64,000 nucleotides of DNA, from positions 37,758,001 to 37,822,000 of the forward strand of contig NC_083288.1 of the NCBI RefSeq assembly GCF_963506605.1, in the 5' to 3' direction. This stretch comes from Zootoca vivipara. Its lineage: Eukaryota. Of the stretch, positions 7,432 through 36,910 are shown piece by piece. The notes beneath the pieces were generated by a model. The model was not told the DNA's origin. It saw nothing but the letters and a program-made list of their open reading frames with translations, and did not search any database. The first letter of the stretch is position 1. Every line of letters starts with the position of its first letter. Made by a program: the position numbers and the translations under genes.

Positions 7432-10400
7432 TCAGGGAGCAAGGTGAGTACGCTGGTGTTTGGAGAAAGCGGAACTCCACCGGAACGACTTCCCGCAGGC
7501 GCCGCAGACATACGGGCGGGTGCCGGCGTGCTGGTGCTGGTGCTCAGCTAGGTTGCCGCGCTGCCGGAAGCTCTTGCCGCAGACGGGGCAGCGGTACGGC
7601 CTCTCGGCTGTATGAACTCGCCGGTGCTTGACCAGGTGCGAGTTCTGGGTGAAAGATTTGCCGCAGGAGGTGCAGGCGTAGGGCCTCTCGCCGGTGTGCG
7701 TCCGCTGGTGCTGGATGAGGTTGGAGCTCTGCCGGAAGCCCTTGCCGCACTCGGTGCACCGGAAAGGGCGGGCGCCCGTGTGCGTGGCCTGGTGCTTGGC
7801 TAGGTAGGAGCCCAGGGCGAAAGCCTTGCCACAGATCGCGCAGCAGTGCGCCTTGCCCGGGGCGTGCGTGCGGCGGTGCTCCGCCAAGTTGGAGCTTTGG
7901 CTAAAGATTTTGCCGCAGTCGGGGCACTTGAACGGCTTCTCGCCGGTGTGCGTCACCTGGTGCCGCAGGAGCTTCGAGCTCTGCGCAAAGCCCTTGCCGC
8001 AATCGGGGCATTTGTAGGGGCGCTCCGCCGGGTGGCAGCTGCGGCAGTGCTCGGTGAGTCGGCAGCGCCACACGAAGGTCTCGCCACACTGAGGACACCG
8101 GGCCGGAGGGTCGCGTTGGTGTTGCCGCAGCCCCGAAAGCAACACGAAGCCCTTGCCGCACGCTGGGCACCGGAAAGGCCTCTCCTCGCCCAAGTGGCGA
8201 CGCTGGTGCCTCCCCAGCTTGCCACTGTCTGGAAAACGTTCACCGCACGTCGGGCAGCGGTAGGCATCGTCGTCTGACATGTGGGTGCGCTCGTGCGCCG
8301 CCAGCGTGGCAAATAGCGCAAAGGACTTGCCGCACACGGCGCAGGAGTACAGCTTGTCTAAGGCAGCCTCAGTTGTGTGGCTCAGCTGGTGAATCACAAG
8401 CTCCGAGTCACTAGGAAACGTTTCGCCACACTGGTGGCAGTAGTGGGATCTTCCATCCGCCCCATGGCTCACTTTATGCTCCAGGAGATCACTACTGTCC
8501 AGGAAGCAAGTGCTGCAGATGCTACATTTATAAGGCTTCTCTTCTGCCTCCTCATCTCCTTTGCCAGCATGACTTGCTTGGTGAAGGACCAACTCATCAC
8601 GATCAAGGAAGGTTTTCCCACACGGGGGGCAGGGAAACGATTCCACTTCCAGGTGGATTCTCTGGTGTGCGGCCAAAGCAGTGGCCTCGGCAAAGTGGGC
8701 CCCACACTCTGGACACTCAAAGGGATTCTCCTTCCCATTGCGGGTGCTCTGGGGCTCCTCCAAGCCAGAGCTATCGGGGAAGTTCTCTCCTCCTTGGTGG
8801 CAGAAGTGGGATAACTCTCCAAGGTGTAGTCTCTGATGTATCTGGAGGGCAGAGTTTTCAGAGAAGCAAGCATGACAGTCAGGGCATTTGTGTGGCTTCT
8901 CCTCCACACTGTGACTTGCCACGTGGGTGCCTAGTTCTGACTGGTCAGGGATGGTTTCTCCACACTGATGGCAGCCATGAGCAACTTCACTCAGATGGAT
9001 TCTTTGGTGCTGAGTCAGCTCAGAACTCTGCCTGAAGCCTTCCCCACATTCAGAACACATAAAGCTTTTCTCTTCTTCTTCTTCCTCCTCCTCCCCCTCC
9101 TCCTCTGCACGGTCATTTTGCTGCCCACCTGCATCTGAGCCCTCAAGCGAAGCTTCTTCATTTTGCTGCCTGCCCCAATCTGCGGCTGGCAGCGGAGTAG
9201 AGCAGGGCACTTCTGCAGTGACATTCCCCCAGCCGCTGCCGTTGGCGCGATGGTTGCGCATGTGCTTGGCCAGGTCAGAGCTGACGCCGAAGCAGCGGCC
9301 GCACTCCCTGCACAGGTAGGGCTTTTCGCCGGTGTGGGTCCGCCGGTGCGTGACAAGGGTGGACTTGCGCCCGAACCGCTTCCCGCAGTCGGGGCAAGCG
9401 TGGGGGCGCTCGCCCGAGTGCGTGCGCAAGTGGTGCGCCAGGGTGGAGCTCTGTGAGAAACGGGCCCCACACTGGTGGCACCGGAAAGGCTTCTCCCCCG
9501 TGTGTACCCGCTGGTGCTCCGCGAGCGTAGAGCCCCGGGCGAAGCGCTTCCCGCACTCGCCGCAGGCATGGGGGCGGCGCCCGCCGTGCGCCTTGAGGTG
9601 CTCCGCCAGCGAGGAGCTCCAGCTGAAGCCGCGGCCGCATTCGGGGCACCGGAAAGGGCGCTCCCCGGTGTGGATCCTCTGGTGCTTAACCAGGTTTGAG
9701 CTCTGGGCAAAGCCCTTGCCACACTCCGAGCAGTGGAACGGCCGGGGGTCTGCGGCGACAGAGGCCTTTGCGTCTTTCTCTCCTGATGCTGCTTGGCCCC
9801 AGTCCCAGCTCTCCAGGAAAGTCGAGGCCCCTTGCTCCTCAGCACCCTCCACCACTTCCTCCTCTTCCTCACTTGGTGTGTCAGAGCCTGGCGGGAGAAA
9901 GGAAGATCGTGAAGAAATGCGGCGCTGGATCAGGCCTATTGTCACAGGACATGTAGGCAAGTGAGGCTACAGGGAACCAGGCAGAGGGCCTTCTCGGTAG
10001 TGGAGCCCTCCCTGTGGAACACCCTCCCTTCAGATGTCAAGGAAATAAACAACTATCTGATTTTTAGAAGACACCTGAAGGCAGCCCTGTTTAGGGAAGT
10101 TTTTAATGTTTGATGTTTTATCGTGTTTTTAATACTCTGTTGGGAGCCACCCAGAGTGTATAAATAAATTGTTGTTGTTGTTATCACACAGTTCGAAGTT
10201 GGAGTTAATTCTTTATTAGCAAACAGCGACCCTCACAGACTTGGCTGAGTGTCACGTCTAATGGGGATAGCAACTCATCTCCCACCCTGTGGGAGGGGTT
10301 TTGTCTCCATGGAGCATTTGCTGAGACTGAAGATCACTGCCTCCCCGTAGCTTCCTAGGTCCCCTCCTCTCCCGGTCTTTCTTTCTAGCAATCAGAAACT

Positions 10401-14360: not shown

Positions 14361-16532
14361 AAGCTTTGTTAGCATATTGCACACCTCATAAGAAAAAAAA
14401 ATGGAAAAGTGAGTCAGGCCATTGGTCCATCTCGCTCAATACTGTCAACATTGATTGCGGCGATTGGGCCTCCCGGCAGTACCTGAGATGCAATTACTTG
14501 AACCTGGTACCGCCCCCCCCCTTGGTAAATAAGACTCCCCACTTCCTTCTCAGCCGGAATTCTGGCTTCCATCCCTAACCGCTTCCTAGAATCCAGTTGC
14601 AGATTTTGTCTCCTGGCGGGGCTCCTGTGCTATTTAACAGCTGTAGGGCTATATGACTTTTCTCCGGCCTAGAGAGACAGCGATGCAGCAGTGCAGGGCT
14701 GGCTCTGAGCCGGACGCAACCAAGAGGGCTTTTTGCATTGTGACCAGCATCGTTCAGGACCTTTCAGTCCACATTCTGACATTATTACCCCTCGGCGTCG
14801 CTGATGCCCCGCCCGAAGCAAAAGGTTAACGACCCTTCCTCGCCCCCCCCCCGCCCTTCCCATATTGGAAACCAGGCTGTCCTTTTGTCCAGGGAGGAAA
14901 GGGTTACGCAGGCGGGGCACAGGGAAGCTTCCGGTCCCCGCCAGAGCTTCCGGGAGAGCAAAGGGAGCAGCAGCAGCAGCAGCAGCAGCAACATTGGGGT
15001 GAGAAGCTGGGGGCTGCAAATGAAAGAGGGGAATGGGGGGGGATCCCGTGGCTGAGCATCGATTGTTTGCAGGCAGTTGCATTATTTGCAGCCGCTTCCT
15101 TGGCAAAAGCGTTTGTTAAGCATATGTTAGCAGCGACGCCCAAATTCAGCATAAATTGCAACTCGGGTCCTGCTTTAGGCTTGCATCTGGTTGACCGCTG
15201 TGAGAGCAGAGGTGGTAGGGTAACTTAAGTTTTGCTCAGGAGTAGGCCTGTTGAAATGAACGGGCCCTAGCTTCGTCATGCCCATTAATTTCACTGGGTC
15301 TGCCTTGAGTAAAACTTACACGACAGATCCACACCATACGTTTAAAGCATGCGGCATCTCCAAAGGACCCCGGGAATTGTAGTTTTTACCCTTGCAAATC
15401 TGCAGTTCACAGCACCCTTAGCAAAGCATAACTCTGGGGATTCTTAGGGGTGGGAGCCATGAGCTGTAAACGAGTGTTGCATGTGTTTTACATGCACTGT
15501 ATGGCGTGTGTATAGGACGAATACCTAGACTAGATGGGCCATTGGCCTGGTCTGTCGTGATCCTACTGCCAGTACATTTCACTGCGTCACCCTGAGTCCT
15601 TTTTGTTGTTACCACCCTTCATCTGAGGATCACAGGGCGGTATGGTCTAATATGGGACAGGGATGTGGGAAAACACATATCCACACTATATATCAGGATT
15701 GGGGAACCTGTGGCTCTCCAGATATTGCACTCCAGTTCCCTTCAGCCTACAGCCAGTGTGATCAATGGCCAGAGATTATGGTTACAATTCAGCAACCTCT
15801 GGAGGTTCCCCATTCTTGCTATACATAATTTTATAAACTGCTATCAAAGCTCTCTAAACTCTTTGGCTATGGCTTCCTCATTCCATTGCCATTCCGGAGA
15901 GGAGCTTTGCTATGTATTCCTAGTTTTTTGGAGGTTGTTTATAATATTTTCTGTTACTCTAGTTTACCCCACTGTTACAGAACTGCCTGCCCTTTGTTTG
16001 ATGCTTTTAATATCTAAAAATAAGAAACTGGCCAGGAAGTCATGCCTTTCAAAATCCCGTTTTTTACCGCTGCTGGAGGGAAATGGTAGCAAAATGGGAT
16101 TGATTAAAAACTATGTTGGAATGGAAAACTCATGCAATTTCCTTGTAGGAGATTCTTTGAGCAGATGCTGCTAAGAACCCACAGCGAGCCTTCAGCATCA
16201 TGTGCAGGTGACGGTCCATTTGTGTGTGGGGAGGGGGGAGAGAGATCCTATGTACTTTTGAGCATAATTTCAGGCACCCCTGAAGGTACAAAAACATTGT
16301 GCGTGGGTTTAGGGAAAGCAGTACACCCAAGGTGAATACTGTTCCTCTGAATGTGTATCTGAGCCTTTTTAGCATTATGAAATATGGTTACTCACGCTGA
16401 TCCTGAGAGATAATATTGAGTGGAAATGTCTGTATGTTGTTTGTGTGTGTGTGTGTATTGCAATTGCCTCTTGCATCTTTTCTCCTCCCCAGCTTTTGTC
16501 TGCTCAAGCAAGCCCTGCCCGCTCCCTTTGCC

Positions 16533-17555
16533 ATGAAGAAAACCCTACGCAAAAACCAAGGCGAGCGTTACCGCCTGAAATTCCGGCGCCTGCGCCGTGC
16601 GGCCAAACTGCTGGTTTACGAGAACGCAGCTCTGTGCGACGAGATTGCCAGGCTCGAGGCAAAATACCTGCGTGTCCGTGAAGAGCGCCGGTTCCTGCTC
16701 GCTCGCCTACTGCAAGCGCAAGCCCTGGCGGAAGACGAGCCTCCTTTGCCGGCCACCGCTTCAGCTTCACAGCCCTCGCCGGATGAGCCGGCTGCCCGCA
16801 AGCCCCGCCGAGAACGCAAAGGCAAAGAGAATGGCCGGGCCTCCAAGCGCAGGGTGGCCCCCGAGCTTGGTGTCCGCCGGCTGGTTCCGCCACTTCCCTT
16901 GGATCCTTCCGGCCGGCCGGTTTTACCCATTGCGTTGGGTCCGCTGACTGTCTACAGCTTGGGGGAAATTGTTTCCGACCGCCCAGGCTTCCACACGGAG
17001 ACGGCCATCTATCCCGTCGGCTACTGCAGCACCAGGATCTTCGCCAGCACCCGCAGACCAGTCCACCGCTGCCTCTACACCTGCCAGATCAAGGACGGTG
17101 GCGGCGGGCCACACTTTGAGATTGCCCCCGAGGACGAGCCGGGCTGCGTGGTCGCTGGCTCCACTCCCGACGCCTGCCACGCCCAGCTTCTCGAGGCTGT
17201 GGGAGCAGCGCAACTCGAGCCGGCAGGGGCCGAGTTCTTTGGCCTCTCCCACCCGGCCATTCAGCACCTCATCCAGAGCTGCCCAGGAGCTCGCAAGTGC
17301 AGCGGGTACCGCTGGCTGCGCTTTGAGGTGTGCCGCCAAGCGGATGGCCCCCCTCCTGAGGGGTTGCCCTTGGGAAACCCTGGGACTGACTATGAGGCTT
17401 TCCAAAGCCAAGGCCTGGCGGGACCTGTGGGCCTGGACTTCCCCACCGCCACCCCTTCCCCACCGAGCGGCAATGGATATGCAGAACTTTTTCTGCCCTG
17501 TGGTCCCTCAGGAGGCTCCCCCATCCCCCAAAGCCCAGAGAGTGACACGGACTGA
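16533..17555 (+). CDS. TBRG1: TBRG1 (transforming growth factor beta regulator 1 / NIAM) homologue, 340 aa, single coding exon, FYRN/FYRC domains
   Basis: MKKTLRKNQGERYRLKFRRLRRAAKLLVYENAALCDEIARLE...LDPSGRPVLPIALGPLTVYSLGEIVSDRPGFH..AIYPVGYCSTRIFAS..CLYTCQIKDGG..FFGLSHPAIQHLIQSCPGARKC matches my recollection of TBRG1. gccATG is at 16533, a polypyrimidine/AG acceptor ends at 16492 (5'UTR intron) and AATAAA is at 18109-18114. Confidence 0.92.
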   Translation: MKKTLRKNQGERYRLKFRRLRRAAKLLVYENAALCDEIARLEAKYLRVREERRFLLARLLQAQALAEDEPPLPATASASQPSPDEPAARKPRRERKGKENGRASKRRVAPELGVRRLVPPLPLDPSGRPVLPIALGPLTVYSLGEIVSDRPGFHTETAIYPVGYCSTRIFASTRRPVHRCLYTCQIKDGGGGPHFEIAPEDEPGCVVAGSTPDACHAQLLEAVGAAQLEPAGAEFFGLSHPAIQHLIQSCPGARKCSGYRWLRFEVCRQADGPPPEGLPLGNPGTDYEAFQSQGLAGPVGLDFPTATPSPPSGNGYAELFLPCGPSGGSPIPQSPESDTD

Positions 17556-21459: not shown

Positions 21460-24400
21460 TTATTATTTATACCCCGCCCATCTGGCCGGGTTCCCCCAGC
21501 CACTCTGGGCGGCTTCCAACAAAATACTAAAATATAGAAATCCATCAAACATTAAAAGCTTCCCTAAATAGGGCTGCCTTGAGATGCCTTTGGACTACAA
21601 CTCCCATAAGCCCCCGTCAAAGCAGTCATGCTCGCTGGCAGCAGATGGTAGCTGGAGTACAAAATGTCTCAAGGGCATCAGGTTGGGCAAGGCTGGCATT
21701 TTGACACACACTGAACGCCAAAAGCCCCAGTCAATACAGCCAAAGGTCACAGGTGGGAGTTGTGGTCCAACAACAGTAGGAGAGCCATGGCTTCCCCTTC
21801 CTTGCTGCAGCCCAATAGGCAGCTGGAAAAACCACATCCTCTGGCCATGTTTGGGTTCTTTTAAAATAAAAATAATAATAATTATTTATAATAATTAGCG
21901 GCTTCCAACAGAATATTAAAAGCACAATAAAAAAAAATCAAAATTTTCCCTAAACAGGGCTGCCTTCAGATGTCTTCTAAAAGTCAGATAGTTGTTTATT
22001 TCCTTGACATCTGGTGGGAGGGCGTTCCACAGGGCAGACGCCACTACCAAGAAGGTGCTCTGCCTGGTTCCCTGTAGCTTCACATCTCGCAGTGAAGGAA
22101 CTGCCAGAAGGCCCTTGGAGCTGGACCTCAGTGTTCGGGCCAAATGATGGGGGTGGAGACACTCCTTCAGGTATACTGGGTCGAGGCTGTTTAGAGCTTT
22201 AAAGGTCAGCACCAACACTTTGAACTGTGCTCGGAAACGTACTGGGAGCCAATGTAGTTCAACGGCCACTCCCAGTCACCAGTCTAGCTGCCACATTCTG
22301 GATTAGTTGCAGTTTCCGGGTCACCTTCAAAGGTAGCCACACGTAGAGCGCATTGCAGTAGTCCAAGCGGGAGATAAGGAGAAGAAGAAGAGAAGAGTTT
22401 GGATTTGATATCCCGCTTTATCACTACCCGAAGGAGTCTCAAAGCGGCTAACAATCTCCTTTCCCCTCCTCCCCCACAACAGACACTCTGTGAGGTGGGT
22501 GGGGCTGAGAGACTTCAGAGAAGTGTGACTAGCCCAAGGTCACCCAGCAGCTGCATGTGGAGGAGCGGAGACGCAAACCCGGTTCCCCAGATTACGAGTC
22601 TGCCGCTCTTAACCACTACACCACACTGATAACCAGAGCATGCAACACTCCAGCAAGACAGTCTGCAGGCAGGTAGAGTCTCAGCCTGCGTACCAGATGG
22701 AGCTGGTAAACAGCAGCCCTGGATACAGAAACTTCCTCACATGTTCCCCATCATGTAGAGATGGGGTGGGGAGAGCAAGGATGTGCTGTCCCCACCACCT
22801 CTGTCCTGCCCCTGATATCCCAACCCCATGGCCCTCCAAGCACTGGGGTTGAATGTTTGCAGCTGCAACACTGAAATGCATGGGGAGTCTGCCTGAGTAG
22901 AAGAGCCATTGGAGGTTGAGCCCCAACAAGTAAGAGGGTGGGACAGTGAGGAACATGGAGGAGAAGGAGCAGCCAACATCTGCTGCCCACCATCGCCGTA
23001 TGATGGGGAATGCTTGAACTTCTCCAGTCCGAAGGGAATCCAGAAAAGCCACACTGTGACCATCGGGAAGCAAATAATCCAGAACCCTCTCCTCCAACCC
23101 AGTAAGACCCTCTCAAGCACTGCAAGCCAGGGGTGGCCCCCACCCCCAGCTGACCACTTAACCCCCATACTAACCCGTGTTTGTTCAGAAGATGCCGGAT
23201 ATCATTAGAGGACCTTTTCGCACTGTCCGTCAGTATCTCAATTAGTAGGGTGCAACCACCAGGGCCTCGCACCCCATACAGCAAGTAGGACGATTTGATT
23301 TTTTCCTACCGAAAAAGAAAAGTTGAAAAGAACAGTAAGTTGCGTCTTGAGGGACAGACACACACATACACACAGATGATGGGAGTTGTAGATCAGCGCC
23401 ATGTGGAGAGTCAAAAGGTATTCCACTACTACTACTACTAATTTAAGTTGTGGGCAAGGGCAGTTTGGGTACACAAAGGATGGTGAGTGACACAGACCAA
23501 CCAACCCCTTTCCAACCACTACCATTTCCTTGTTACCCCGCCAGACACACACACACACACACAACTTTCTCACAACTTTCTCCGCTCTCACAAAAGAGGT
23601 GGCAGAATCCGCATCTGCACCCTGGCTCCAAACAGCTCAGAAACGTACCGCGCAGGTGAGTGCTGCTTCGATGGAGGCCTTGGGCATGCTCTTGCTGCGG
23701 CACTGCTCAATAATATTGGCGAGATTCGTGTTCAGTTCCGGGTTGGGTCCACCATCTGGCAAAGACAATGCAGGAAGACAGCAGATTACCCTTAAACAAA
23801 TGGTTTATCATAAAAAGTTATCTCGCTTCGTAGAATGATGGGAACACAAGAGGGTCTTTGTCCTGAAGCGTTTACAATCGAAAATTCAGCGTAAGGAAGA
23901 AACACCATGGACAGAATACCGTAATTGCCACACACAGGAAGAACAAGGGTGTAGTTTGAGTGCCTCGCTTGTAGTCTATAAATCCTTTAATGTGCCAACA
24001 TGAATAGAAGATGTTAATATTGCAGCTGTTGTATAAGGCAGTGTTTCCCAACCAGTGCACCTCCAGATGTTTTGGGACTACAACTCCCATCATTCCTGAC
24101 CACTGGTCTTGCTAGCTAGGGATGATGGGAGTTGTAGTCCCAAAACATCTGGAGGCACACTGGTTGGGAAACACTGGTATAAGGGATTATTATTTTGACT
24201 GGAAAGTAATTGAAATCAGTAAGATTTTGGAATGCACAAATAAAGAAAATCATCAAACCATCAAATCTAGTACGCGGGCGGCCACCTAAATTATATAATT
24301 CAGTATTTGAATGATTGGTATTAGTAATGGTATTATAATTTGCTGTTGTTATAATGAGGCTATTATTGGACTGTAGTTGAAATTTTTTAAATATCGGGGT

Positions 24401-24888
24401 GGGGGGGGAGAAAAAGAAAACTCAGCATAAGGGAGGGGAATGTAGCCTACTGCATTCTGTATAAATCTTGGGAGCTAGGGAACAGGAACTGCGGGGATGG
24501 CCACTGACCAGATTGGCTGCTCCAAGTATGTGGGCAAAGCTGGGTTTCACCCTGCTTGCCAGAGACCGGTGGCACACTTGCCACGCAGCAAGCGGAAACA
24601 TGGGAGCCTAGCTGTGTGCTAGGAATCTCCAGTTCCATTGCAGAATAGCAAGAGAAATCCTGCCGCTGTACCTCTTACAGCCAGTCGGATCAACATGGAA
24701 AGTTTCTGGAAGAGACGGGCCCGAGCTTCGTCCTTCGGACCCTTAATATTTTTGACCTTGGACCATTTGTTGTGTCCGGCGAAGGCAGCGCAGGAGGTGT
24801 GGACAGCGCGATGCGGGTGGTCCAGTAACATCAGAAGGTGTGGCCGGAAGAGGACCCGCATCCTCAGGAGACTGGAGCCTACAGACAT
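20593..24888 (-). CDS. TACO1: TACO1, translational activator of cytochrome c oxidase 1 (YebC/PmpR family), 277 aa; exons 24888-24672, 23755-23649, 23305-23175, 21068-20891, 20793-20593
   Basis: Motifs [64 protein letters not shown] and DVVRVYDNI. The N-terminus is Arg-rich and presequence-like. All five exons have GT-AG borders and sum to 834 nt in frame. Confidence 0.95.
21411..21458. repeat. (AAT)n microsatellite (LINE tail-derived)
   Basis: ~16 AAT units read directly. Confidence 0.95.
21880..22710 (-). mobile_element. L2-clade LINE 3' fragment, split by a SINE
   Basis: [23 protein letters not shown]...[11 protein letters not shown]...[10 protein letters not shown] is the L2 ORF2 end. 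Related fragments lie at ~9950-10160 (+), ~21460-21585 and ~32580-32940 (-). Confidence 0.8.
22378..22628 (-). mobile_element. Squam3-like tRNA-derived SINE inserted in the L2 fragment
   Basis: tRNA-like head (gtgtggtgtagtggttaagagc on -), purine-repeat tail on +, short gataa duplication at both ends. Confidence 0.65.
24039..24176. mobile_element. hAT-type MITE (cagtgttt TIR variant)
   Basis: Near-perfect palindrome; TSD gtataagg. Confidence 0.88.
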
Positions 24889-26494
24889 GGCTTGGATGGG
24901 ACGGAAGAGGTTCTGTCTTGATGTTCAATCTTGGAAACAAATAGGAAATAAAATGACCGTTGTGATATGGAAATGCAGAGCACTGGAAATGCAGTTTTGA
25001 AAATGGCTCATTTTGAGGATGGAAAATAAGAATCCTACAAAAAACACACACCCCACAATCCATCAATATAATCCACTGGAACATTGCTGAATTGCTACGG
25101 TAAATTCTGAAACCCACTCAAAAGCCATGAAATAAATGGGAACTGGTTCCTAAGGTTCCTAAGGATCTCCCCTTACACGACAAGGAGACGAATGCAGAGT
25201 TCACCGGCTCCCAACAGAACTCAGCAAACACACCTTGTGTAAAAAAAAAAAGAGTGCTGGTTTATAACTTTCTCATATTGAGTGTTTTTAGCTTTCCTTT
25301 CCCCACTATTCATGCTTAATTTTCCTCCAGATTGTTCAGCATTGGAGAAAACATTCACAGAACTCCGCAGCGAAAAGTGGCCAGTACAGAAGGTTAAACG
25401 TGTTAAGGTTACGAGCCTCTTGAAAAGGGCAGACACAAAAATCACACGCATCCATCTTTTATCGGGAATAATCGACGATCTCTGGTTCTACACTCGCAAA
25501 CACAAAATGTAGATTGCAATTAATTTAATTCATAAGCATTTGCACCGAAAGACAGAAGGAAGAGTGGGATCTACGCTTGATTGTGACTAGTCTAGACTCT
25601 AGTGTGTCAGAAGAACTAATCTGCGATTCACTGCTAATGAACCCAGGAGTTCTGGCTGCCATCATGTACTACAGTATACAGTATTTTACCCATGAAAGCC
25701 CCCCACCATTTCCTCTTCCACGCGAGGGTCCCAACTTACAGAGGAATAGCTGCAGCAGCGTCATGGAACTCCCCGGCATTCTTCCTGCAATAGCTCCGCC
25801 CACAGAGAGGCGGTACCTGATATTAACTCTTTCCTCTCGAGCCCCTTGGTGGGCAAACGATTCCTGGACTTGATGACCCTCATGGTCCCTTCCAACTACG
25901 ATTCTATCCTCCCTCAGCCGTGCCTTTATCAGATATTTATTTTTAAATTAGACACATGCAAGGTCTAAAGGTGTGGATAATAATCTCATGTCTAGTTTGG
26001 CCTCAAAGCACTTGGAAGTCTGGAAAAACCGAATGGATTAAGTGTATGTATGTGTATGTATATATATATATATGAAGTGCAAAACAGAAATAAACTGTCG
26101 GATGCATCCAACGGATTAAGCACCTTTTTGGAGTGTTTCAGCAGTGTCCATTACTGGCAAGTATCATTTCTTAAATGGGCTGGAATGTGAAAGTTGTTTG
26201 GGACAACCAGTACACATTGTCAGGGGTTCGGGTGACAAGAAGCCCACGAGGGAGAAATGCTATTCAGTTGACATTTAAAGACAAACCGAGGTAATTTGCA
26301 CTTTCCAAAATGATACGTGAACCAAAACACAGCCATCCTTCAAAATTTGGACTTCTCTGCAGTACATTTATCCAGCCAGGTGTCTGTACAGAAATGCATA
26401 AACTAGGGTAAACTGTGAGTAAAAATGCATAGAAGTGTGAAAACGACATCCTGTACAAAAAATGCATTCCAGATTCCAGAAGTATACACTATGC

Positions 26495-27040
26495 AGAAGT
26501 ATGGTGTCCAGATCAAGTGAAGAAGTAGTACCACTCTATTCTGACTTGGTCAGACCTCACCTGGAATACTGTGTCCAATTCTGGGCACCACAATTTAAGA
26601 TGGATATTGACAAGCTGGAAAGTGTGCAGAGGAGGGCAACCAAGGTGATCAAGGGTCTGGAAACTAAGCCTAATGAGCAGTGGTGTCCAAAAATTTTTCA
26701 AAGAGGGACAGATTTGATGAAGTGAAGGGCCTTGAGGGCCGACCAAAGTTGTTAACCTTTTTTTAGGATTGAAGTTGTTGAGAGTAGGACTCGAACCAAT
26801 GGCTTCAAGTTGCAAAAAAGGAGATTGCGACTAAACATTCAGAAAAGCTTTCTGACAATAAGAGCTGTTTGACAGTGGAACGGACTCATAGGAGAGTTGG
26901 TGGACTCTCCTTCCTTGGAGGTTTTTAAACAGAAATTGGATGGCCATCTGTCATGGATGCTTTAGCTGAGATCCCTGCACTGCAGGGGGTGCACTTGATG
27001 ACCCTCGGAGACCCGTCCAACTCTAAGATTCCACGATTCC
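26495..27040 (+). mobile_element. CR1 LINE 3' fragment (interrupted near 26680-26780)
   Basis: [43 protein letters not shown] is the typical CR1 ORF2 C-terminus, followed by CR1 3'UTR. Confidence 0.88.
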
Positions 27041-27149
27041 ATTTGCAAATATTGCTTTACAAAAACGTGCAGGTGAGGCAAGATTGCACATAGGAACGTT
27101 ATTAGGAAAATTTCACCCTAAGAATGCTGATGGGTTTTCATAAAGACTT

Positions 27150-27700
27150 TAAAACAAACAAAGCTGCATGTGGAAATGTGAAGAGCTGAACTTCAGGCCG
27201 GAAAACGAGAAACTGAGAGTACCCAAAACAGACACGATTCGCCCATCCTTAGCCAAGTCAACTTCAGCACAGAAGCTGCTAGCCGTATGCGGAAATACTC
27301 GAAGGGTTAAAAAATCAAAAACAAAGCCCCTGAGCCTAGAGAGGCTCCGAGAGACCCGAAGAAGGGGATGCAAAATGCTACGGCACTTTCCCGTTCCGCC
27401 CAAAGTGGAGAAGGAACTGAAAGTGGCTTTTGGTCCCCCTCGCGCGCCGCCCCGCCCCCCCGCCCCTGTTAGAGCAGCAGCAGCAGCAGCAAAGCCAGAG
27501 AGGCTGCGCAGTGCGAGCCTCCAGATGTGGGTGGAGAGAAGCTGCCAGGAGGGACGCAAAAGGTAGGAAGAGAATCATTTCCTCCCTCCGAGGGCCACGT
27601 GGTCCCCCTTCTGCTCCGGAGTTTTCTGCTCCCTGGTTCGGGCGGGGGGCGAGGAGGGGACCGTGGGGGTTGGGATCACACCTGGACTAGGGCTACCTGC
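27150..27700. promoter_or_regulatory. CpG island, probable bidirectional promoter for TACO1 (-) and the SCAN-ZF gene (+)
   Basis: CpG-rich with GC boxes (gccccgccc). A plus-strand donor aag|gtagga at ~27562 can pair with the acceptor at 29190. A small minus-strand UTR exon candidate lies at 25233-25205. Confidence 0.6.
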
Positions 27701-29279
27701 TTGCCCTTGCAAATGCACACATGACACACTCTCTTCCTTGCTGTCTTTGGAAGGCTGCTGAAAGATGACCTGACACGCGTTTGTACACTCCCTTTTCGTA
27801 GATCCAGCCTGGACTGTATATCATTCTACAGTACTGTATAGATATATATGCTCGCGTGCACACACAGAGAGCGAGAGAGAGCGCAGAATGAGGTGGGATC
27901 ATTTCCTGGCATGGTCCATCGAGATTTCGCTGTACTACGAAGGACCGGTCGGTGGAGTGTGCCCTTTTTTAAACTTGCACGTTGAGTCAAGGGCACCACC
28001 TGCTCCCTGCAGATCAAGAAATTGAAGCATCTTAGTTTTTTGTTTTTTTAGCCTAGCTCACTCTGTCTCGGTTGTACTAGTGTTTTTTTTTTTTTACTGT
28101 AGGAAGTTTCTGAGGCAGCAATGCCTTGGCCCACGGGGGTGGGAGGTGGACCTATCACCAGGCTGGCCACTGTGGGAACAGGATGCAGACTAGATGGGAC
28201 ATTGGCCTGATCCAGCAAGGGCCTTCTTGTGTTCTTATCCTATTCCAGCTCCTCTCAGAACAGCTCCCTAACATTGTACTGTATACATTTTGTCGGATCT
28301 GACTTTTCTTTCTTTTCTGTAGAAGTGTTTATCCATTTTCACTTCTTTTTTCATTTTCTTGTTCCCTACCACTATAGAATTTTGCATGTTTATCGGTTTA
28401 TAGATAATAAAAATAAATAAATCAGCAAACAGCCCTTCCACCCAGCTGCATTGAAAGCGAAAGATAAAATACAGTAGTTAGGCCCACTTCATCAGTCTTG
28501 AGTCTGTGACCAAGTGCAACTTGGTAGTAGATATTATTTATTGCATTTATATCCCGCCATTTTCTCCAAAGAGCTGTAGATGGTCGCATACATGGTTCTT
28601 CCCTTCCTCAATTTCCATGACAACCCTGTGAGGTGGGTTAGGCTGAGAGGCACTGACTGGCTCAAGGTCACCTCACCCAGTGAGGTTTATGACCGAGTGA
28701 GAGGATTTGAACCCTGGCCTCTGAAGTCCTAGTCAGACACTCCAGCTACTACACCACACTGGACTAAGCACTTAAATGCATAAAGCATTTTTCTATATGG
28801 CTTCCATCTCATTTAAATGCTCTTATCAAGTAACAGTGCATGGATAGTGGTTGTGTCTGCACCAGATGCCAAGATGGCTGACCACCATATATAATAACTA
28901 GCAGGTGTTGTTGGAAGGGCAAACATGGTTATCAACTTGTATTTTACTTTATCTGAGGGATCTTGTGGTATTGTCAGCCATGCCAGGGATTGTGGTTCCC
29001 CCCCCCTTCCTTGTGCACCTGGGGACAGGAATATTAGATGGGGTGAGAATAAAAATGGAACAATTTTCAGATGATCGGTCCTGGGCTAAGAGTGTTCCAC
29101 TTTTCATGACAGGACAATGCCTTCGCTGCCTCACCACAGATTATTCTAACCGCAGGCCAAGTCAAGAGATTGAGAGGCCTTTCTCCTCAGCGTGAGAAAC
29201 TGAAACCAAGAGAAAGCAGCCGCTGCAGCAGCAGTCTCTTGAGAAGCAAAGTGGCCAAACTTCAACGCCCACTCCCAAA

Positions 29280-32200
29280 ATGGCGGCTCCCCAAGGAGAA
29301 ATGGCAGACCTGGGACTCCCATTGCCGGTTCGAGTCAAAATGGAGGCCCAGAGCCAAGCAGCGAGCGCTTCACCAGAAGGAAATGGGAAATTCTCCAGCG
29401 TAAGCCCCGGTGGCGCTGCTGAGGAGCTAGCGAGAGGAGCGTCTGTGCCCAGGGTGAAGCAGGAGCTGGCAGAGGAGCAGCCTCAGAGCTGGGATTGCCA
29501 ATGGCAGCGGCTGTTGGAGGTGGTGCCCACTCCAGTGGCGTCCTCAGTGCGGGACAACCCACAGTTGCCTCCTCTGTCCCAGGGGGGCAGCACCGAGGCC
29601 TACCTGGCCACCTTTGAGCGAGTGGCCGATGCTTCTCAGTGGCCTAGAGAGGAGTGGGTAACTCGACTTGTGCCCGTCCTCAGTGGCCAAGCCCAGCAGG
29701 CCTATTTTGGTTTGGATGCGAAAGACAAGGGTGACTATGGGAAGGTGAAGGTGGCCATTTTGAGGCTGGACAGCTACATGGCCACAGAGGCCCATCGCCA
29801 AGGCTTTCGGCACTTCTGTTACCAGGACACCGAGGGGCCACGAGGAACGTGCCAGCAGCTCCAGGAGCTTTGCCACCGTTGGCTGAGGCCTGAGAGCCAG
29901 ACCAAGGAGCAGATCTTGGACCTGCTGATCCTGGAGCAGTTCCTTGTCATCCTGCCGCAGGAAATGCAAGACTGGATCAGGGAACGTGGGCCTGAGACCT
30001 GCGACCGGGCCGTGGCTCTGGCTGAGGAGTTTTTGCAGGAGCAGCAGGAGACTGAGAGATGGGCCCAACAGGTAAGGGATGTAATCTTCCCTGGTCTTTT
30101 CTGGGGGTGCTGAGAAGGTCTCATGGGTTTGCAAACAGGAAATTGAATTCTGCCTAGCAGGAAGGGTGGGGATATTTCACTAAGGGGCTAATCAGCCTTT
30201 CATAGTCCAAGAACAGTGTGAAAAATAGGCACGAGGGTGCATGTCATCTTGAGAATTGCCCTGGAAGATTCCATATTTCCCTGAATACAGTGGAACCTCG
30301 GTTGTCGAACGTAATCCGTTCTGGAAGACCGTTTGACTTCCAAAACGTTTGAGAACCGAGGCGCAATGAGCTGTCAGCAAAATCCATTGAAAAAATGGGT
30401 AAATGCGCCACAGGAGCCGTTTGACTTCCGAGGTGCGTTCGAAAACGGAAGCATTCACTTCTGGGTTGTTGGCATTCGAAAGCTGAAACGTTCGACTTCC
30501 GAAGCATTTGACAACCGAGGTTCCACTGTATATGTACTTTTAAAAAAATACCTACAAAGTAACGAGTAACAGCAGATATTGAATTTTTTGCCTCTAAAAG
30601 CAGCGTAGATTGTGTGTGTGTTGGATGCACAGGAGACCAATTATAAATCCGCTGTAGCCCCATGTGGCCAACACAAAGTGGGCTGTGGTTTCATCTAAAA
30701 GTGGGAAGGTTATGCCTCACCACAGAATTGGGGGGGGGGGTGGAGCTTGTCAACAAACTCTGTCCATATACTAGCTGTGGTGATTGCATCACACACTGCC
30801 AGCCTCTTGAGGCACAGCGACTGCAGGTCTTTTCTGGTTTCATTCCCGACAAGGCTGCCGCTCCACTTTCCCTCGTCCAGTGTTTCTGCTCTGATCGAGA
30901 AAGCTCTGTGTATTCTGTATGCACCCTGGCTGCTTGTTGTTTAGTCGTTTAGTCGTGTCCGACTCTTCGTGACCCCATGGACCATAGCACGCCAGGCACT
31001 CCTGTCTTGCACTGCCTCCCGCAGTTTGGTCAAACTCATGTTCGTAGCTTCGAGAACACTGTCCAACCATCTGGTCCTCTGTCGTCCCCTTCTCCTAGTG
31101 CCCTCCATCTTTCCCAACATCAGGGTCTTTTCCAAGGATTCTTCTCTTCTCAAGAGGTGGCCAAAGTATTGGAGCCTCAGCTTCACGATCTGTCCTTCCA
31201 GGGAGCACTCAGGGCTGATTTCCTTAAGGATGGATAGGTTTGATCTTCTTGCAGTCCATGGGACTCTCAAGAGTCTCCTCCAGCACCATAATTCAAAAGC
31301 ATCAATTCTTCGGTGCACCCTGGCTACTAGCACTTATTTATTCACATCCTTCAGATGATATTATTGTTATTATATATCCTGCCTTTCTCCCGAAACCGTA
31401 CATGGTGGTCACCGCCAACATTTGTATGGGAAATCTCACCACTTGGGCACAGGGAGTCTTGACCACGCTTTCTTTTTTCTTCTGGCGAAACATTTCACTT
31501 CAAACCCATGCAATTGAAACTTATCTTTGTGCACCCATAATGGCTAGAAACCTGACTTTGTTAAATACAGAAGCTGAGCTTCTATGGGCGCCACTCGGCA
31601 TCCGTTTCCGCGCAAGCTAAATTCAACCATTTCCCGTTCTGTTCCTTTCAGATAACGGTGCCGATTGAGATGGTTATTGTAAACTCCCCCATTGTAGACC
31701 TGTCGGACTCGACACAGAGACATCTTCGCAGGGAAGCCAAACCAGCTGACGAGGATAACAGCTTGCAAGGTAATTGCAGCAGGGAAGTGCCTCGGAAGGA
31801 TGGCTTTTCCACTTTTGTAGGATTAGGTTTCTGCAATACAGCGCCCTTTAACAAACTGCAGTTCCCAGGAGCTCTGCTTGGCTCTCCTTTCTCAGGACTG
31901 AGGCTGAGATCGCCAGCATGCAGAGCATGGCATGTTGGTGCCTCTACCCCAAACGCCCCTCTCTCTTTTCTCCCAACAGAAAGCTACTTTGCAAGCAGAG
32001 CTGTGGCCAAGGAGCTGCACCAGCCCGCGGTGGAGGAGCCGGGAAGGAGAGCTCCGGGGGGATTCGGGGAGGCTGTTTTCCCAAGAGGCGACCCTAGAAG
32101 GCCGCACGGGAGCGAGCGCGGTGTGGGGATGCAGCAGAAGGGGGGCTGCCTCTCGGTCCGGGTCATCAAGGACAGGGGGCTCAGAGGGGTCCTCGCCGAC

Positions 32201-32461
32201 CCAGAAGCGAAGCGCCACCTGTGCAAGGAGTGCGGGAAAAGGTTCCGCAAGAGGTGGGACCTCATTCGGCACGAGAGGATCCACACGGGCGAGAAGCCCT
32301 ACCAGTGCCCAGAATGCGGGAACAGCTTCAACAGGAACACGACCCTCACGAAGCACCTCCTCGTTCACTCAGGGGAGAAGCCCCACCAGTGCGCTTACTG
32401 CGGGAAGAGATTCACACGGAGGTCGCACGTCGTGAACCACCAGAGGCGTCATTCGTGGTAG
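29280..32461 (+). CDS. SCAN-domain C2H2 zinc-finger protein with extended Gag/capsid-like region (~463 aa, 3 fingers); exons 29280-30071, 31652-31769, 31980-32461
   Basis: SCAN motif EAHRQGFRHFCYQDTEGPRGTCQQLQELCHRWLRPESQTKEQILDLLILEQFLVILPQEMQDWIRERGPETCDRAVALAEEF, then donor cag|gtaagg at 30071. The downstream exons are in phase (0, then 1) and end in three fingers with TGEKP/SGEKP linkers; total 1392 nt. Confidence 0.9.
30288..30528. mobile_element. Tigger/pogo-like MITE
   Basis: TA|cagtggaacctcggttgtc...gacaaccgaggttccactg|TA. Confidence 0.87.
30935..31313 (-). mobile_element. BovB LINE 3' fragment in intron of the SCAN-ZF gene
   Basis: BovB 3' end; TSD tgcaccctggct(g/a)ct at 30920-30934 and 31314-31328; near-identical to the 14008 copy. 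Confidence 0.93.
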
Positions 32462-33347
32462 GAGCTGCCTTCCGTTCCTCTTGTGGGGGTGGGGGTGGCC
32501 CACCTTTAGGTGGATGTGTGCCAGTAGAAAGGAAGCATTATTATTATTATTATTATTAGTAGTAGTAGATTGCAGGGCAGTTCACAACATAAAAGCACAA
32601 TATAAAAAACACAAAATACGTAATAAAACTAACAACAGCCTAATAATCCCACCCACCCACAATGCCAAAGGCATTGATGTCAATCAGCCAAAGAGTTGGT
32701 GGAAGAGGAATGTTTTTGCCTGGCACCTAAAGGTGTATAATAAAGGCACTAGCCGAACCTCTCTGGTGAGAGCATTGCACAAACAGGGAGCCACTGCAGA
32801 AAAGGCCCGTTCTTGTGTTGCCACCCTCCGGACTTTCATGGAGGAGACACACGAAAAAGGGCCACAGAAGATGATTTCAGGGTCCTAGTAGGATCATATG
32901 GAGAGAGGCAGTGCTTGAGGTATTGCAGTCCTGAGCCGCATGAAGAGGGTGGGCTGAGAAACCTGTTTTGACTGTTGGTTGTTAGGAGAGACCCCTGTTC
33001 CCCTCACAGAGCTGCAATCCCCAGAGTGGTGTAACAGTCGCTTCCTCTTCCCAGGGAGTGTTGGGAATTGTAGCCCCATGAGACGAGTAGGCCTTATCTA
33101 ACAACTCTCAGAAAACCCTTTTAAAAACTACAGTTCCCAGGTTTCTTTTGGGCAAGCCATGTTACTTTATTGGCATGATACTGCTATCAATTGATGGTGC
33201 AGATGGGGCCTATGTTCAGCTGTGTGTATGTGCTTGTTTACATGTGGGCGAACATTCCGGCAAGCCACCCCTCCCTTTGTATTCTGAAGTGGTAGAACCC
33301 AGGAGCGTCGGTTCCACACTTTCTGCGTTCAAACTCAGCCTGAATTA

Positions 33348-33447
33348 GGGATAGCTCAGTCGGTAGAGCATGAGGCTCTTAATCTCAGGGTTGTGGGTTC
33401 GGATCCCACGTTGGGCAAAAGATTCCTGCATTGCAGGGATTTGACCC
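33348..33447 (+). mobile_element. tRNA-Lys(CTT)-derived SINE with CR1-like tail
   Basis: A box tagctcagtcggtagagc, anticodon arm ctcttaat and B box ggttcggatccc, then aagattcctgcattgcaggg; no closed acceptor stem. Confidence 0.8.
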
Positions 33448-33458
33448 TTGTGGTTACA

Positions 33459-33665
33459 GTTGCCAGACTCAATAGAGGACAGGACTTCTGTGCCTTTAAT
33501 TGCCCTGCTCTCTTTTGAGTCTGGAAACCTTAAAGAGAAACCAGCAGACCCTTTGCTTGGAAATTAAACAAAGGGTCTGCTGGTTTCTCTTTAAGGTTTC
33601 CAGACTCAAAAGAGAGCAGGGCAACTAAAGGCACAGAAGTCCTGTCCTCTATTGAGTCTGGCAAC
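33459..33665. repeat. Near-perfect 97-bp inverted repeat (foldback MITE)
   Basis: Arms 33459-33555 and 33569-33665 are reverse complements with one mismatch; 13-nt spacer; the tggcaacccta end is shared with other elements in the window. Confidence 0.9.
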
Positions 33666-34834
33666 CCTAGCCCAAGGTCATCCAGGGAGCTTCATGGCTG
33701 AGTGGGGATTTGAACCCTGGTCTCTCAGGTTTTAGTCAGACACCAACCGCCACACTGCATTGGCTGTCATTATGGACCAAATTGACAAGAAATGAATTTT
33801 TGGTTTCTTACGATAACACACCACCTCATTTTGTTGCAGCCAAGGAAGGTCTTGACGAAGTCCCCGCTGTCTCCTGTTGGTGCGACAGATTTGAGCAGAG
33901 AGCAAGGGAATTTACTCCTGTATCCAGAGGCGAAGAGGCTGCAGCCGAGTGTTTGCGCTGGGAGGCTCGGAAGGCAGGCTATGCTGTTGGCAGAGGGGTG
34001 GCTTCTAGAGCATTTGTTGCTTGTGTGCATCTCGAATCTGATGATCAATGGATGTCTGAGGGCAAGCAGCTTCCAGGGGGTGGGGAGGGGTGGGGGAGAA
34101 GGGTCTGTACTATCCGTTCTGTCATTTGGCGAAGTCGTGAAACTGTGGGAGCATCTTAAGAGAAAGGAAAACTATCCATTGTCATTGGATCCAGAAAGGC
34201 AGCCCTGGGTCAGGTTTCATCTATTTATTTAACGTTATCATGGGATTACTTGCTGGAGCTGAAGGTAGAATATGTATCGGGACATGGGCAGGATTCTGAG
34301 CGCAAACCAGCAGATGCCACTGGGAGGACTGCAAATTTTGAGCGTCTCACTCAACGTTTTTGTATCCAAGCAAGCTTTGCCAAGTCAGGAGTACACTTTC
34401 AGCACTTTGCTGTACCCATGCCTGAAACTGACTGTTCACATTGTGGCAACAGGCTGAAGCTGGAAGGTACAGAAGGGAAGAGTTTCCCATGTGTATCTGG
34501 GTGGCCACTGTGAGAACAGGATGCTAGGTGAGAGATTGGCCACTGGCCTGATTTAGTAGGCGCTTGTTTTGTTCTTAAGCATTTAAAAGGCAACCCCAAC
34601 AAGCAGGAGCATGTTGGGCTCGCAAAAGTGATGCCTGCAATGGAGCCCAGGGGGAAATAGGGTACAGCCTAACTCATGTAAAACTCCAAGCCTTGAGCTG
34701 GAAATAGGATTGCCAACTGACCAAGAAAAGCACTGGCCAAATGTGCTCTTGTGCCTTTATTAGTTGCTCTAGGTGCATAAAATCAACCAGCTTCTCAGCA
34801 TGGGGATAACACTACCAGTTGTGAATATCTACAC

Positions 34835-34971
34835 CAGTGTTTCTCAACCAGTGTGCCTCCAGATGTTTTGGGACTACAACTCCCATCATCCTAGCTAGCA
34901 AGACCAGTGGTCAGGAATGATGGGAGTCGTAGTCCCAAAACATCTGGAGGCACACTGGTTGAGAAACACTG
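34835..34971. mobile_element. hAT-type MITE (cagtgttt TIR variant)
   Basis: Near-perfect palindrome; TSD atctacac. Confidence 0.88.
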
Positions 34972-36910
34972 ATCTACACATCTTGAGGCTGTTAAAGGCT
35001 TACAAGTGCAGCGGCTGGTCGAAAATTTGGCAGCCCAGATTGGAAAGGGAGGGCTGGATAGGGAAATAAGAAATGTCCCAGCCTCCCATTCTGGGCAATG
35101 GCTCTTGTTGCTGAACGCTTTGCAGGGTCCTGCCGTGATTCCTTGGCACGGCTTACTACTTATGCAGGATAGTGATTGTGCCCCTACAGGTTGAGTAATG
35201 CACGGTGTAACTGGCTTGGCTGTCGGTGGTGTATTTTAACTTTTAACTCTTTAGAAATGGAAAATCAATGGCGCTTCTGTTTATTTAATAATTTATTTCC
35301 CAGTTTCCCAAAATGTGGTACAAAAACCACTTACAAAAAAAAAATTCAAACATTGAAAAACCAAGACATCGGTTCTAATAAAACCTGGCAACAGTTGCTG
35401 TTGTTCCCTAAGCAGGATGCCTCTTGCTATTCAAGGCTCTCATAGTCCTGTTCTATCAATGGTTGCAATTCCTAAAAGAGCAGAGCAGAAGCACACAGGG
35501 TTTTTTTAAAAAACGTGTTGTTTATGTGTTGGGGGGGGGGAGAGAAACTGAGCTTTCCTCTAAGTGCAATATTGGATCTTGTTTAAAATAGCACAAAATA
35601 GACGCAGGCGTAAGCATTTGCAGATCTGTTCATGTGGTCATTATGGGTAATTAAGGGTTTTTAAGTTTGTTGGGGGGCTCATTTATATATGCTCTTGGGC
35701 TTTATTTTAGCCTCTTTGGGCTTTATTTTAGCCTCTTTAAGATCTAGAACTCTGATTATGCTGGGAGAAGATCACATTTTAATGGAGGATCTACTTGTTC
35801 TGAAAACACAAAGCCCATGACTTAGCGCAGATGTGCAAACATGTTGATGTCCAGACCAAAGCCACAGATTTCCTCCCTGGTCATGCCAACTGCTGGGGCT
35901 AAGCCATGGTTTGGCTTAGCATTAACATGTGAACTGGGCCTCTATAAAGCAGCTTTCAAGAATTAGTAAACATACCCTCGACATACTTTAACAGTGAGAA
36001 GTCTCTGGCTGAACTTTTCATTTCATTCACTTAGCGGCTTTAGGTGTGCCACTATTCACTGAGTCCTCTCCTTTGCAATATAGGGATAATATTAGCCTAA
36101 GGGGCGGAATTGTAAGTGCTTTGAACAGAGGAAAAAAATCATGCAAATATGAAGTACAACTATTGCCTCAAGAACCTACTGTATTTTTTGTATGGTCAAG
36201 AAACATGCCATTTCCTTGTTCAGTATGAGCACCCAGTGCAATAGGCATGATATCAAATTGTCCTAATTTTGACCACATTCCAGGGCACTAGTTGGGAGCC
36301 TGCTGTTGGACTCCATTGGCCATCAGCCCCAGCCAGCATGGCCAAAGCGCAGAGATGATGGGAGCTGTATTCCAGCAACACGTGAAAGGCCACAGGTTCC
36401 CCTCCACTACTCTTTTTCGGGTGCTTTCTCTTGTTGATCTGGCCCCGATTTGCTCTGCTCTGTCCTTTCAATGTTTTGAATGCCAGTGGCACAATTCCCA
36501 CCATTGTCCCAATGCACTGGAACATCCACCCTCTGTGGTTCCCAGCCAGAAAATCCTGGAGGACGAGAGCTTTCCATTCATCTTGCAAGTCTTGATTTCT
36601 CCCACCCCTGCTTTTCTTATTTCATAGACATCCTGCTGAATCCTTCAGTCCTTTTATTTAATCATTTCACTTAAGAGAATTAATTATTTCACTTGTTAGT
36701 CGCATGATTCTGGGGCTGGAAGCTTAAAAGAGCCCAGATCCAGCCGGGGAAGAAGCAAACACAGGAGCTGATCCAGGGAAGAGGAAGAGAGCATGCTGGG
36801 ATTTTCGGAAGGGTCACACAAAGTGTTGGAATTCCTGGGCACTCTTCCGCTGCCCAAGAGGATGAAAGGTCAGCCATGGACAGCTTTTGCAAAAGCACAG
36901 GACTCCTCCT

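Follow-up and report, generated by a model that had tools for sequence, protein, structure and literature searches.

The window analysed here, a stretch of 64,000 nucleotides from Zootoca vivipara, carries on its plus strand a gene of four coding exons, with AG/GT ends throughout, that encodes 467 amino acids and matches exactly the annotated Z. vivipara protein P0004, to which NCBI gives the name of a zinc finger and SCAN protein of this species. The features of the gene and of its putative promoter are as follows.

27330..27700, no strand: GC-rich patch that may hold the promoter and a non-coding first exon; arranged head to head against minus-strand TACO1
29280..30071, plus strand: coding exon 1 (aa 1-264), with a variable N-terminus, capsid N-lobe and SCAN in a single frame; phase-0 GT donor at its end
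29334..29345, plus strand: putative SUMO-type motif (aa 19-22), at the same place in 13 of 13 orthologues
29454..29465, plus strand: second putative SUMO-type motif (aa 59-62), in 13 of 13 orthologues
29481..29525, plus strand: tryptophan-bearing helix (aa 68-82), conserved and preceding a proline-rich linker; low model confidence
29565..29783, plus strand: N-terminal lobe of the capsid (aa 96-168), modelled as four helices; its homologue is the corresponding part of Gmr1-type Gag
29787..30050, plus strand: SCAN domain, i.e., capsid C-terminal lobe (aa 170-257); Pfam PF02023, E = 9.9e-39
31652..31769, plus strand: coding exon 2, a linker that opens with a conserved hydrophobic stretch; AG/GT ends, junction conserved in orthologues
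31980..32457, plus strand: coding exon 3, a linker and three C2H2 fingers starting at 32222, 32306 and 32390
33840..33855, plus strand: coding exon 4, the last five residues and the stop codon

Exon 1 was open from the ATG at 29280 to the GT donor after 30071. The peptide that the initial annotation had placed directly upstream of SCAN, in the same intact exon, was recovered exactly and in frame at 29589-29771 (residues 104-164), although it comprises 61 residues rather than about 65. The three C2H2 fingers of the proposed host gene were likewise confirmed, but the short fourth coding exon at 33840-33855 had been overlooked; the joint to this exon alone makes the gene model identical to P0004. 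Because of this identity, splicing of the model rests on the annotation and on junctions conserved across species, not on reads. A same-phase GT donor shortly 3' of SCAN was picked at 30 of 30 family loci, some of these donors probably being misplaced. A search of the gene product for a CCHC knuckle found none.

The consensus of SUMO-type motifs is hydrophobic-K-x-E. Both putative motifs in exon 1 were kept in all 13 orthologues although the N-terminus around them is variable, and of 30 family exons, 17 had a motif like that at residues 59-62, where 1.4 would be expected. The tryptophan-bearing helix showed 67-87% identity among 12 orthologues, with a pLDDT of about 50. At the start of exon 2 (31652-31680, plus strand), where turtle relatives have a SUMO-type motif, the conserved hydrophobic stretch could, from its pattern, be a SUMO-interacting motif.

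The GC-rich patch at 27330-27700 had a G-C content of 0.63 and an observed/expected CpG ratio of 0.57 (0.44 for the window), with a candidate donor near 27563; TACO1 domains lay at 22754-24924 on the minus strand. An island scan (GC 0.55, o/e 0.65) did not call this patch as a CpG island, and the description of the gene as CpG-island-driven is therefore unproven. Elsewhere in the window, an unbroken frame of 382 codons (16407-17555, plus strand) encodes INO80E, FYRN and FYRC domains; it is presumably TBRG1-like and possibly an intronless copy. A separate zinc-finger gene with 23 C2H2 fingers in one exon occupies 7432-9966 on the minus strand.

Element remains were sought around the gene. Among 88 frames of at least 80 amino acids in 22001-42000, Pfam recognised just four, those of SCAN, of the fingers and of two parts of TACO1. 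Comparison of element pol proteins and four LTRs with the window plus 10 kb on each side (84 kb) gave no match, which bears out the statement that no LTR, pol or integrase lies nearby. A single element Gag frame found the capsid exon itself; its tail also matched a short interspersed repeat. A direct-repeat search across 20000-42000 returned short dispersed repeats only. The locus thus lacks the LTRs and pol by which a Gmr1-type insertion is recognised. That the gene is a remnant insertion or a pseudogene was ruled out by the absence of pol and LTRs nearby, together with the conservation and purifying selection described below.

The SCAN domain was readily identified: the ZNF24 SCAN structure matched it (E = 8.4e-27), and solved SCAN domains were 42-53% identical to it. 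The segment upstream had no significant match in Pfam, nor did it find anything significant when searched alone against PDB sequences. Modelled alone, from a 26-row alignment of host copies, this segment formed four helices (pLDDT 86.5). When the model was compared with 48,161 solved chains, the best 29 rows were all capsid lobes, including the PEG10 C-lobe (Z = 9.1, rmsd 1.8, 70 aligned), the N-lobe region of rat Arc (Z = 8.8, rmsd 2.1, 67 aligned), the dArc1 N-lobe (Z = 7.8) and the Ty3 N-domain (Z = 6.0); the first unrelated chain followed at Z = 5.7. Arc N-lobe peptide complexes were among these fold matches. Foldseek gave no hit at E ≤ 0.001 for the N-lobe (best 0.1), and its E-values for capsids were also weak with the two-domain model. 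Since Foldseek was weak, and Z values of this size are common for helical bundles according to the comparison tool, the weight of the fold evidence lies in the uniform list of capsids. Feature matches in the ESM Atlas reached 0.94 (DUF7041 and unnamed clusters) and serve as a lead only.

The two-domain model, comprising N-lobe and SCAN, had a pLDDT of 79.6. Its residues 37-191 followed rat Arc through its two lobes (147 aligned, Z = 10.2, rmsd 4.2); it also aligned to dArc1 and PNMA2, and its best 36 rows were all capsid or SCAN chains. The predicted structure therefore agrees with the earlier suggestion of a near-complete capsid with N- and C-terminal domains. Since N-lobes and C-lobes both resemble it, fold alone cannot separate an inherited N-lobe from a duplication made in the host.

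The origin of the N-lobe was settled by sequence, since a profile built from host copies only matches element Gag, collinear with SCAN. Initial protein searches, and the best 150 of 3906 profile representatives, contained host genes only and no Gag-pol; a search among viral contigs found no relative. A first integrase search led to chromovirus-type elements, and their Gag was without a match. The chromodomain-bearing Ty3/Gypsy family (L045-L050) occupies at least 150 places in the genome, and in many of its copies the pol frame is open over about 1380 codons.

Elements of the other kind were located through a genome search for an integrase C-terminal family, from which nine loci were taken. 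The host-only N-lobe profile matched the Gag frame in six of the nine, with E-values between 2e-9 and 5e-4 for this small set; in a seventh, a fragment was picked up by the two-domain profile as well, and the remaining two gave nothing. Scores on the six Gmr1-type Gags were 17-33 bits, against no more than 9.5 for 100 shuffles of each, and about 0 bits on three of three chromovirus-type Gags. In pairwise comparison, the gene and an element Gag shared 32% identity over 63 N-lobe residues, and the alignment continued through SCAN without a large gap; over the whole capsid, host and present Gag were about 22% identical. Four elements were scanned: each had a SCAN match within Gag and integrase before reverse transcriptase, an order which we take to be diagnostic of Gmr1-like elements and on which that label rests. 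Weak knuckle matches were found behind SCAN in three of the four Gags. The N-lobe segment is, as the initial annotation held, a true capsid N-lobe of Gmr1-type Gag origin. It is not a chance resemblance, given the shuffled scores and the 44 of 150 genome candidates that match, and a host-made duplication of SCAN as the source of the segment was ruled out by its collinearity with the same part of element Gag.

The LTR pairs of all six elements examined (L051-L056) were 98.6-100% identical, and related capsid sequence was found at 150 or more places in the Z. vivipara genome, from which it follows that the Gmr1-type donor lineage is young in this genome. One element (L052) sits within a cluster of extended-SCAN genes on contig C2.

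The architecture itself is not new. The 'extended SCAN' (ESCAN), in which a full-length Gmr1-like capsid is joined to fingers or KRAB, is described from Anolis in the accessible text of PMC3406341, citing Emerson and Thomas 2011; PMC4592553, in the parts available, similarly describes ESCAN zinc-finger genes of lizards and credits the same work. The present gene combines SCAN, a collinear Gmr1-like N-lobe and C2H2 fingers in a host gene without element structure, and it belongs to this reptile class, known here through the citing reviews. As the class was described in 2011, the architecture will not surprise a specialist. According to the available portion of PMC8321522, the capsid was captured before the tetrapods arose, and the reptile and mammal expansions were independent; its supplementary figure S2 may include this gene.

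Nor is the arrangement rare. The N-lobe alone occurred in at least 44 copies in the Z. vivipara genome, none with a stop, and 77 of 150 scored matches to a query of N-lobe plus SCAN started within its first 20 residues; these genome counts are lower bounds. Most of the latter matches cluster on contig C2. This large extended-SCAN cluster, at about 6-11 Mb (L003-L030), has open frames under purifying selection, and it offers more promise than the present gene for detecting an arms race with the elements. Ten stretches of 10 kb around family members were inspected: eight held finger-bearing frames together with the SCAN exon, and a ninth adjoins a stretch with fingers just downstream. At E = 0.001, the N-lobe profile recovered 3906 cluster representatives, of which the best 150 included 86 with at least one finger and, by simple patterns, no knuckle, protease or reverse-transcriptase motif. 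All 120 matches listed for a turtle N-lobe query bore reptile names (squamates, turtles, alligator), and the N-lobe was present in an ostrich protein as well.

Several other arrangements were observed in passing. At about 4.79-5.06 Mb on contig C2 (L038:6201-7952) there is a tandem array of open frames of about 570-585 codons; the frame examined encodes a BED finger and SCAN without the N-lobe, with C2H2 fingers downstream. One SCAN zinc-finger protein of 857 amino acids (P0033) has the second half of the capsid N-lobe tandemly repeated about eight times. In other squamates, extended SCAN is annotated as fused to Tigger-type transposase, Myb/SANT-like and MULE domains (P0038, P0200, P0250, P0251, P0194); these fusions to non-finger domains suggest repeated reuse of the capsid exon.

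Orthologues of this copy were identified by a quick tree and by the fingerprint of the fingers. P0004, twelve squamate proteins and two outgroups were aligned from a set of 21, in which a fused cobra model, four sequences from turtles and an unnamed protein were passed over; the squamates comprised geckos, a skink, a cordylid, a tegu, an amphisbaenian, snakes, anguimorphs and an agamid. Identity to P0004 among the twelve was 82-93% for the N-lobe and 88-94% for SCAN. It was 94-99% for the fingers in 11 of 12, the remaining isoform being cut short; the N-terminus (40-64%) and the linker (50-84%) were less conserved. Of 12 complete proteins, 11 share identical base-contacting finger residues, and the fingerprint occurred in no non-squamate protein fetched. 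The quick tree, built from 62 capsid regions, placed the 13 orthologues on one branch (SH-aLRT 100), apart from a 25-row group with most of the genome's copies, and no turtle, crocodilian or bird partner of this branch was found among those sampled. The gene thus appears to be a single, deeply conserved orthologous group across squamates, whose age is roughly 200 million years. Such a group was not found in print, nor was any work on this orthologue or on how ESCAN proteins assemble, in literature that lay outside most subscription journals.

Selection among paralogues agreed with this conservation. For 30 genome copies, the median pairwise dN/dS was 0.26 in the N-lobe (426 of 435 pairs usable, the pairs not being independent), 0.29 in SCAN and 0.53-0.58 in the flanking parts. 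Protein-level conservation among the orthologues and dN/dS among the paralogues both indicate purifying selection. These values also bear on the notion that the N-lobe is a structural passenger in reptiles, which packs against SCAN and stabilises it without contacts of its own. Mammalian SCAN proteins do work without this lobe (the profile matched none of four, a small sample), about half of the scored SCAN matches in the genome (73 of 150) have no recognisable N-lobe, and some family copies are degraded (L018, L027). Against this, the N-lobe is predicted to fold alone with high confidence, it evolves among paralogues under constraint like that on SCAN, and its columns are as often invariant across the 13 orthologues (40 of 67, or 60%, against 55 of 88 for SCAN). 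The equal conservation of both lobes weakens the passenger explanation, which is improbable.

The proposal that best accommodates these data is of a reptile ESCAN host gene, with both Gmr1-type capsid lobes and three fingers, that probably acts as a nuclear transcription factor, dimerising through SCAN and binding a fixed motif in host DNA, with the N-lobe as a second surface for protein contact; as a whole it is judged more likely than not. It starts from what was observed directly for this gene: its anatomy, the Gag origin of its N-lobe, the absence of element remains and its strong conservation. SCAN domains form homodimers and selective heterodimers, and those solved are described as dimers (PMC5509000, in its available text). 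The protein, presumably nuclear, would dimerise in the same way, and the dimer would bring two three-finger arrays to bear on a fixed host motif. The two SUMO-type motifs may tune its activity, and the N-lobe may choose partners or bind peptides, much as the Arc N-lobe does. The 82-93% identity of the N-lobe, the near-invariant fingers and the two retained SUMO-type motifs fit a dimeric factor with a fixed target better than a fast-evolving anti-transposon factor. Two observations count against the proposal: the 40 invariant N-lobe columns would fit any conserved interface, lattice contact included, and the two-domain model retains intact the two lobes that a capsid requires.

Two intact lobes would allow the domain to assemble beyond dimers, either into rings or a lattice that display many finger arrays and cluster DNA sites, or into closed shells like those of Arc and PNMA2. 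The span of both Arc lobes by the model, its alignment to dArc1 and PNMA2, and conservation of the N-lobe equal to that of SCAN are in favour of such assembly. It is nonetheless unlikely: a shared fold shows no function, the fold scores are common for helical bundles, the product has no RNA-binding knuckle, present Gag is distant, and the solved SCAN domains are dimers.

A further explanation holds that the protein restrains Gmr1-type retrotransposons, by spoiling Gag shells in the manner of RTL8 on PEG10 or by binding element DNA with its fingers. The setting is suitable, with young elements of homologous capsid at many places in the same genome, and the available text of PMC11684626 supplies the precedent of RTL8 against PEG10. 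PMC4592553, as far as its accessible text extends, relays a speculation on capsid-targeting and a predicted binding of lizard proteins to Gmr1-like elements, and states that experimental evidence is lacking for the anti-retrotransposon role. The fingers and N-lobe of this gene are nearly frozen across squamates, as compared at the protein level, a pattern that does not resemble an arms race, even if a target derived from tRNA would likewise stay constant. Rapid or positively selected evolution is typical, if not universal, for capsid-derived restriction factors. A crude motif from the finger code matched once in six elements, against about 4.6 expected, in a test of low power, and no match fell at the primer-binding site of the six, a weak test also. 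Host and element capsids have, moreover, diverged to about 22% identity, and this gene is a less fitting candidate for the idea than the expanded copies of the cluster. There is accordingly little likelihood that restriction is its role.

The dimeric transcription factor is the preferred reading, and the gene is a clean test case for the ancestral role of SCAN: the available text of PMC4592553 states that the function of SCAN, too, lacks experimental evidence. With a small, conserved, whole-capsid factor and young Gmr1-type elements in one genome, ancestral SCAN assembly or contact with Gag can be asked about directly. A bolder and unlikely conjecture is that this large reptile family of transcription factors has an intact two-lobe capsid with a lasting capacity to form rings or lattices, or to join in assembly with Gag from the Gmr1-type elements active in the same genome; mammalian SCAN dimers would then be a cut-down remnant and the squamate-wide gene the best-preserved test case.

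Like the Gag of Gmr1-type Metaviridae elements (L051-L056), it has a collinear N-lobe and SCAN-like C-lobe; unlike these elements, which have LTRs, a weak knuckle match, protease, integrase, reverse transcriptase and RNase H, it has none of these and contains introns. It shares a predicted two-lobe capsid fold with Arc, dArc1, PNMA2 and PEG10, which are separate domestications according to the accessible part of PMC8321522. Those four have been shown to assemble, whereas the capsid described here is known from sequence and model and is fused to C2H2 fingers. RTL8, Fv1 and Drt2 resemble it as capsid parts kept by a host beside related Gag in the genome; it differs in having C2H2 fingers, in the great distance between host and element capsids and in that its binding of Gag is putative. 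SCAN is missing from a recent survey of capsid genes that hosts have domesticated, as far as its available text goes (PMC10516033), and related literature, in the parts accessible, adds little (PMC3670739, PMC3424704, PMC3257199, PMC13709654, PMC13232152, bioRxiv 2026.02.07.704552). As in the mammalian SCAN factors (ZNF24, ZNF174, PEG3, MZF1, ZSCAN10), SCAN stands at an exon end with the fingers in a later exon; the four mammalian factors tested lack the N-lobe that this gene has, and there was no sign of orthology to the mammalian genes that lend it its database names. The closest likeness is to the ESCAN genes of lizards, host genes in which a full-length Gmr1-type capsid, N-lobe and SCAN together, is joined to C2H2 fingers. 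Compared with those described in the available text of PMC3406341 and PMC4592553, this gene has no KRAB, bears only three fingers and is not a copy from an expanding cluster.
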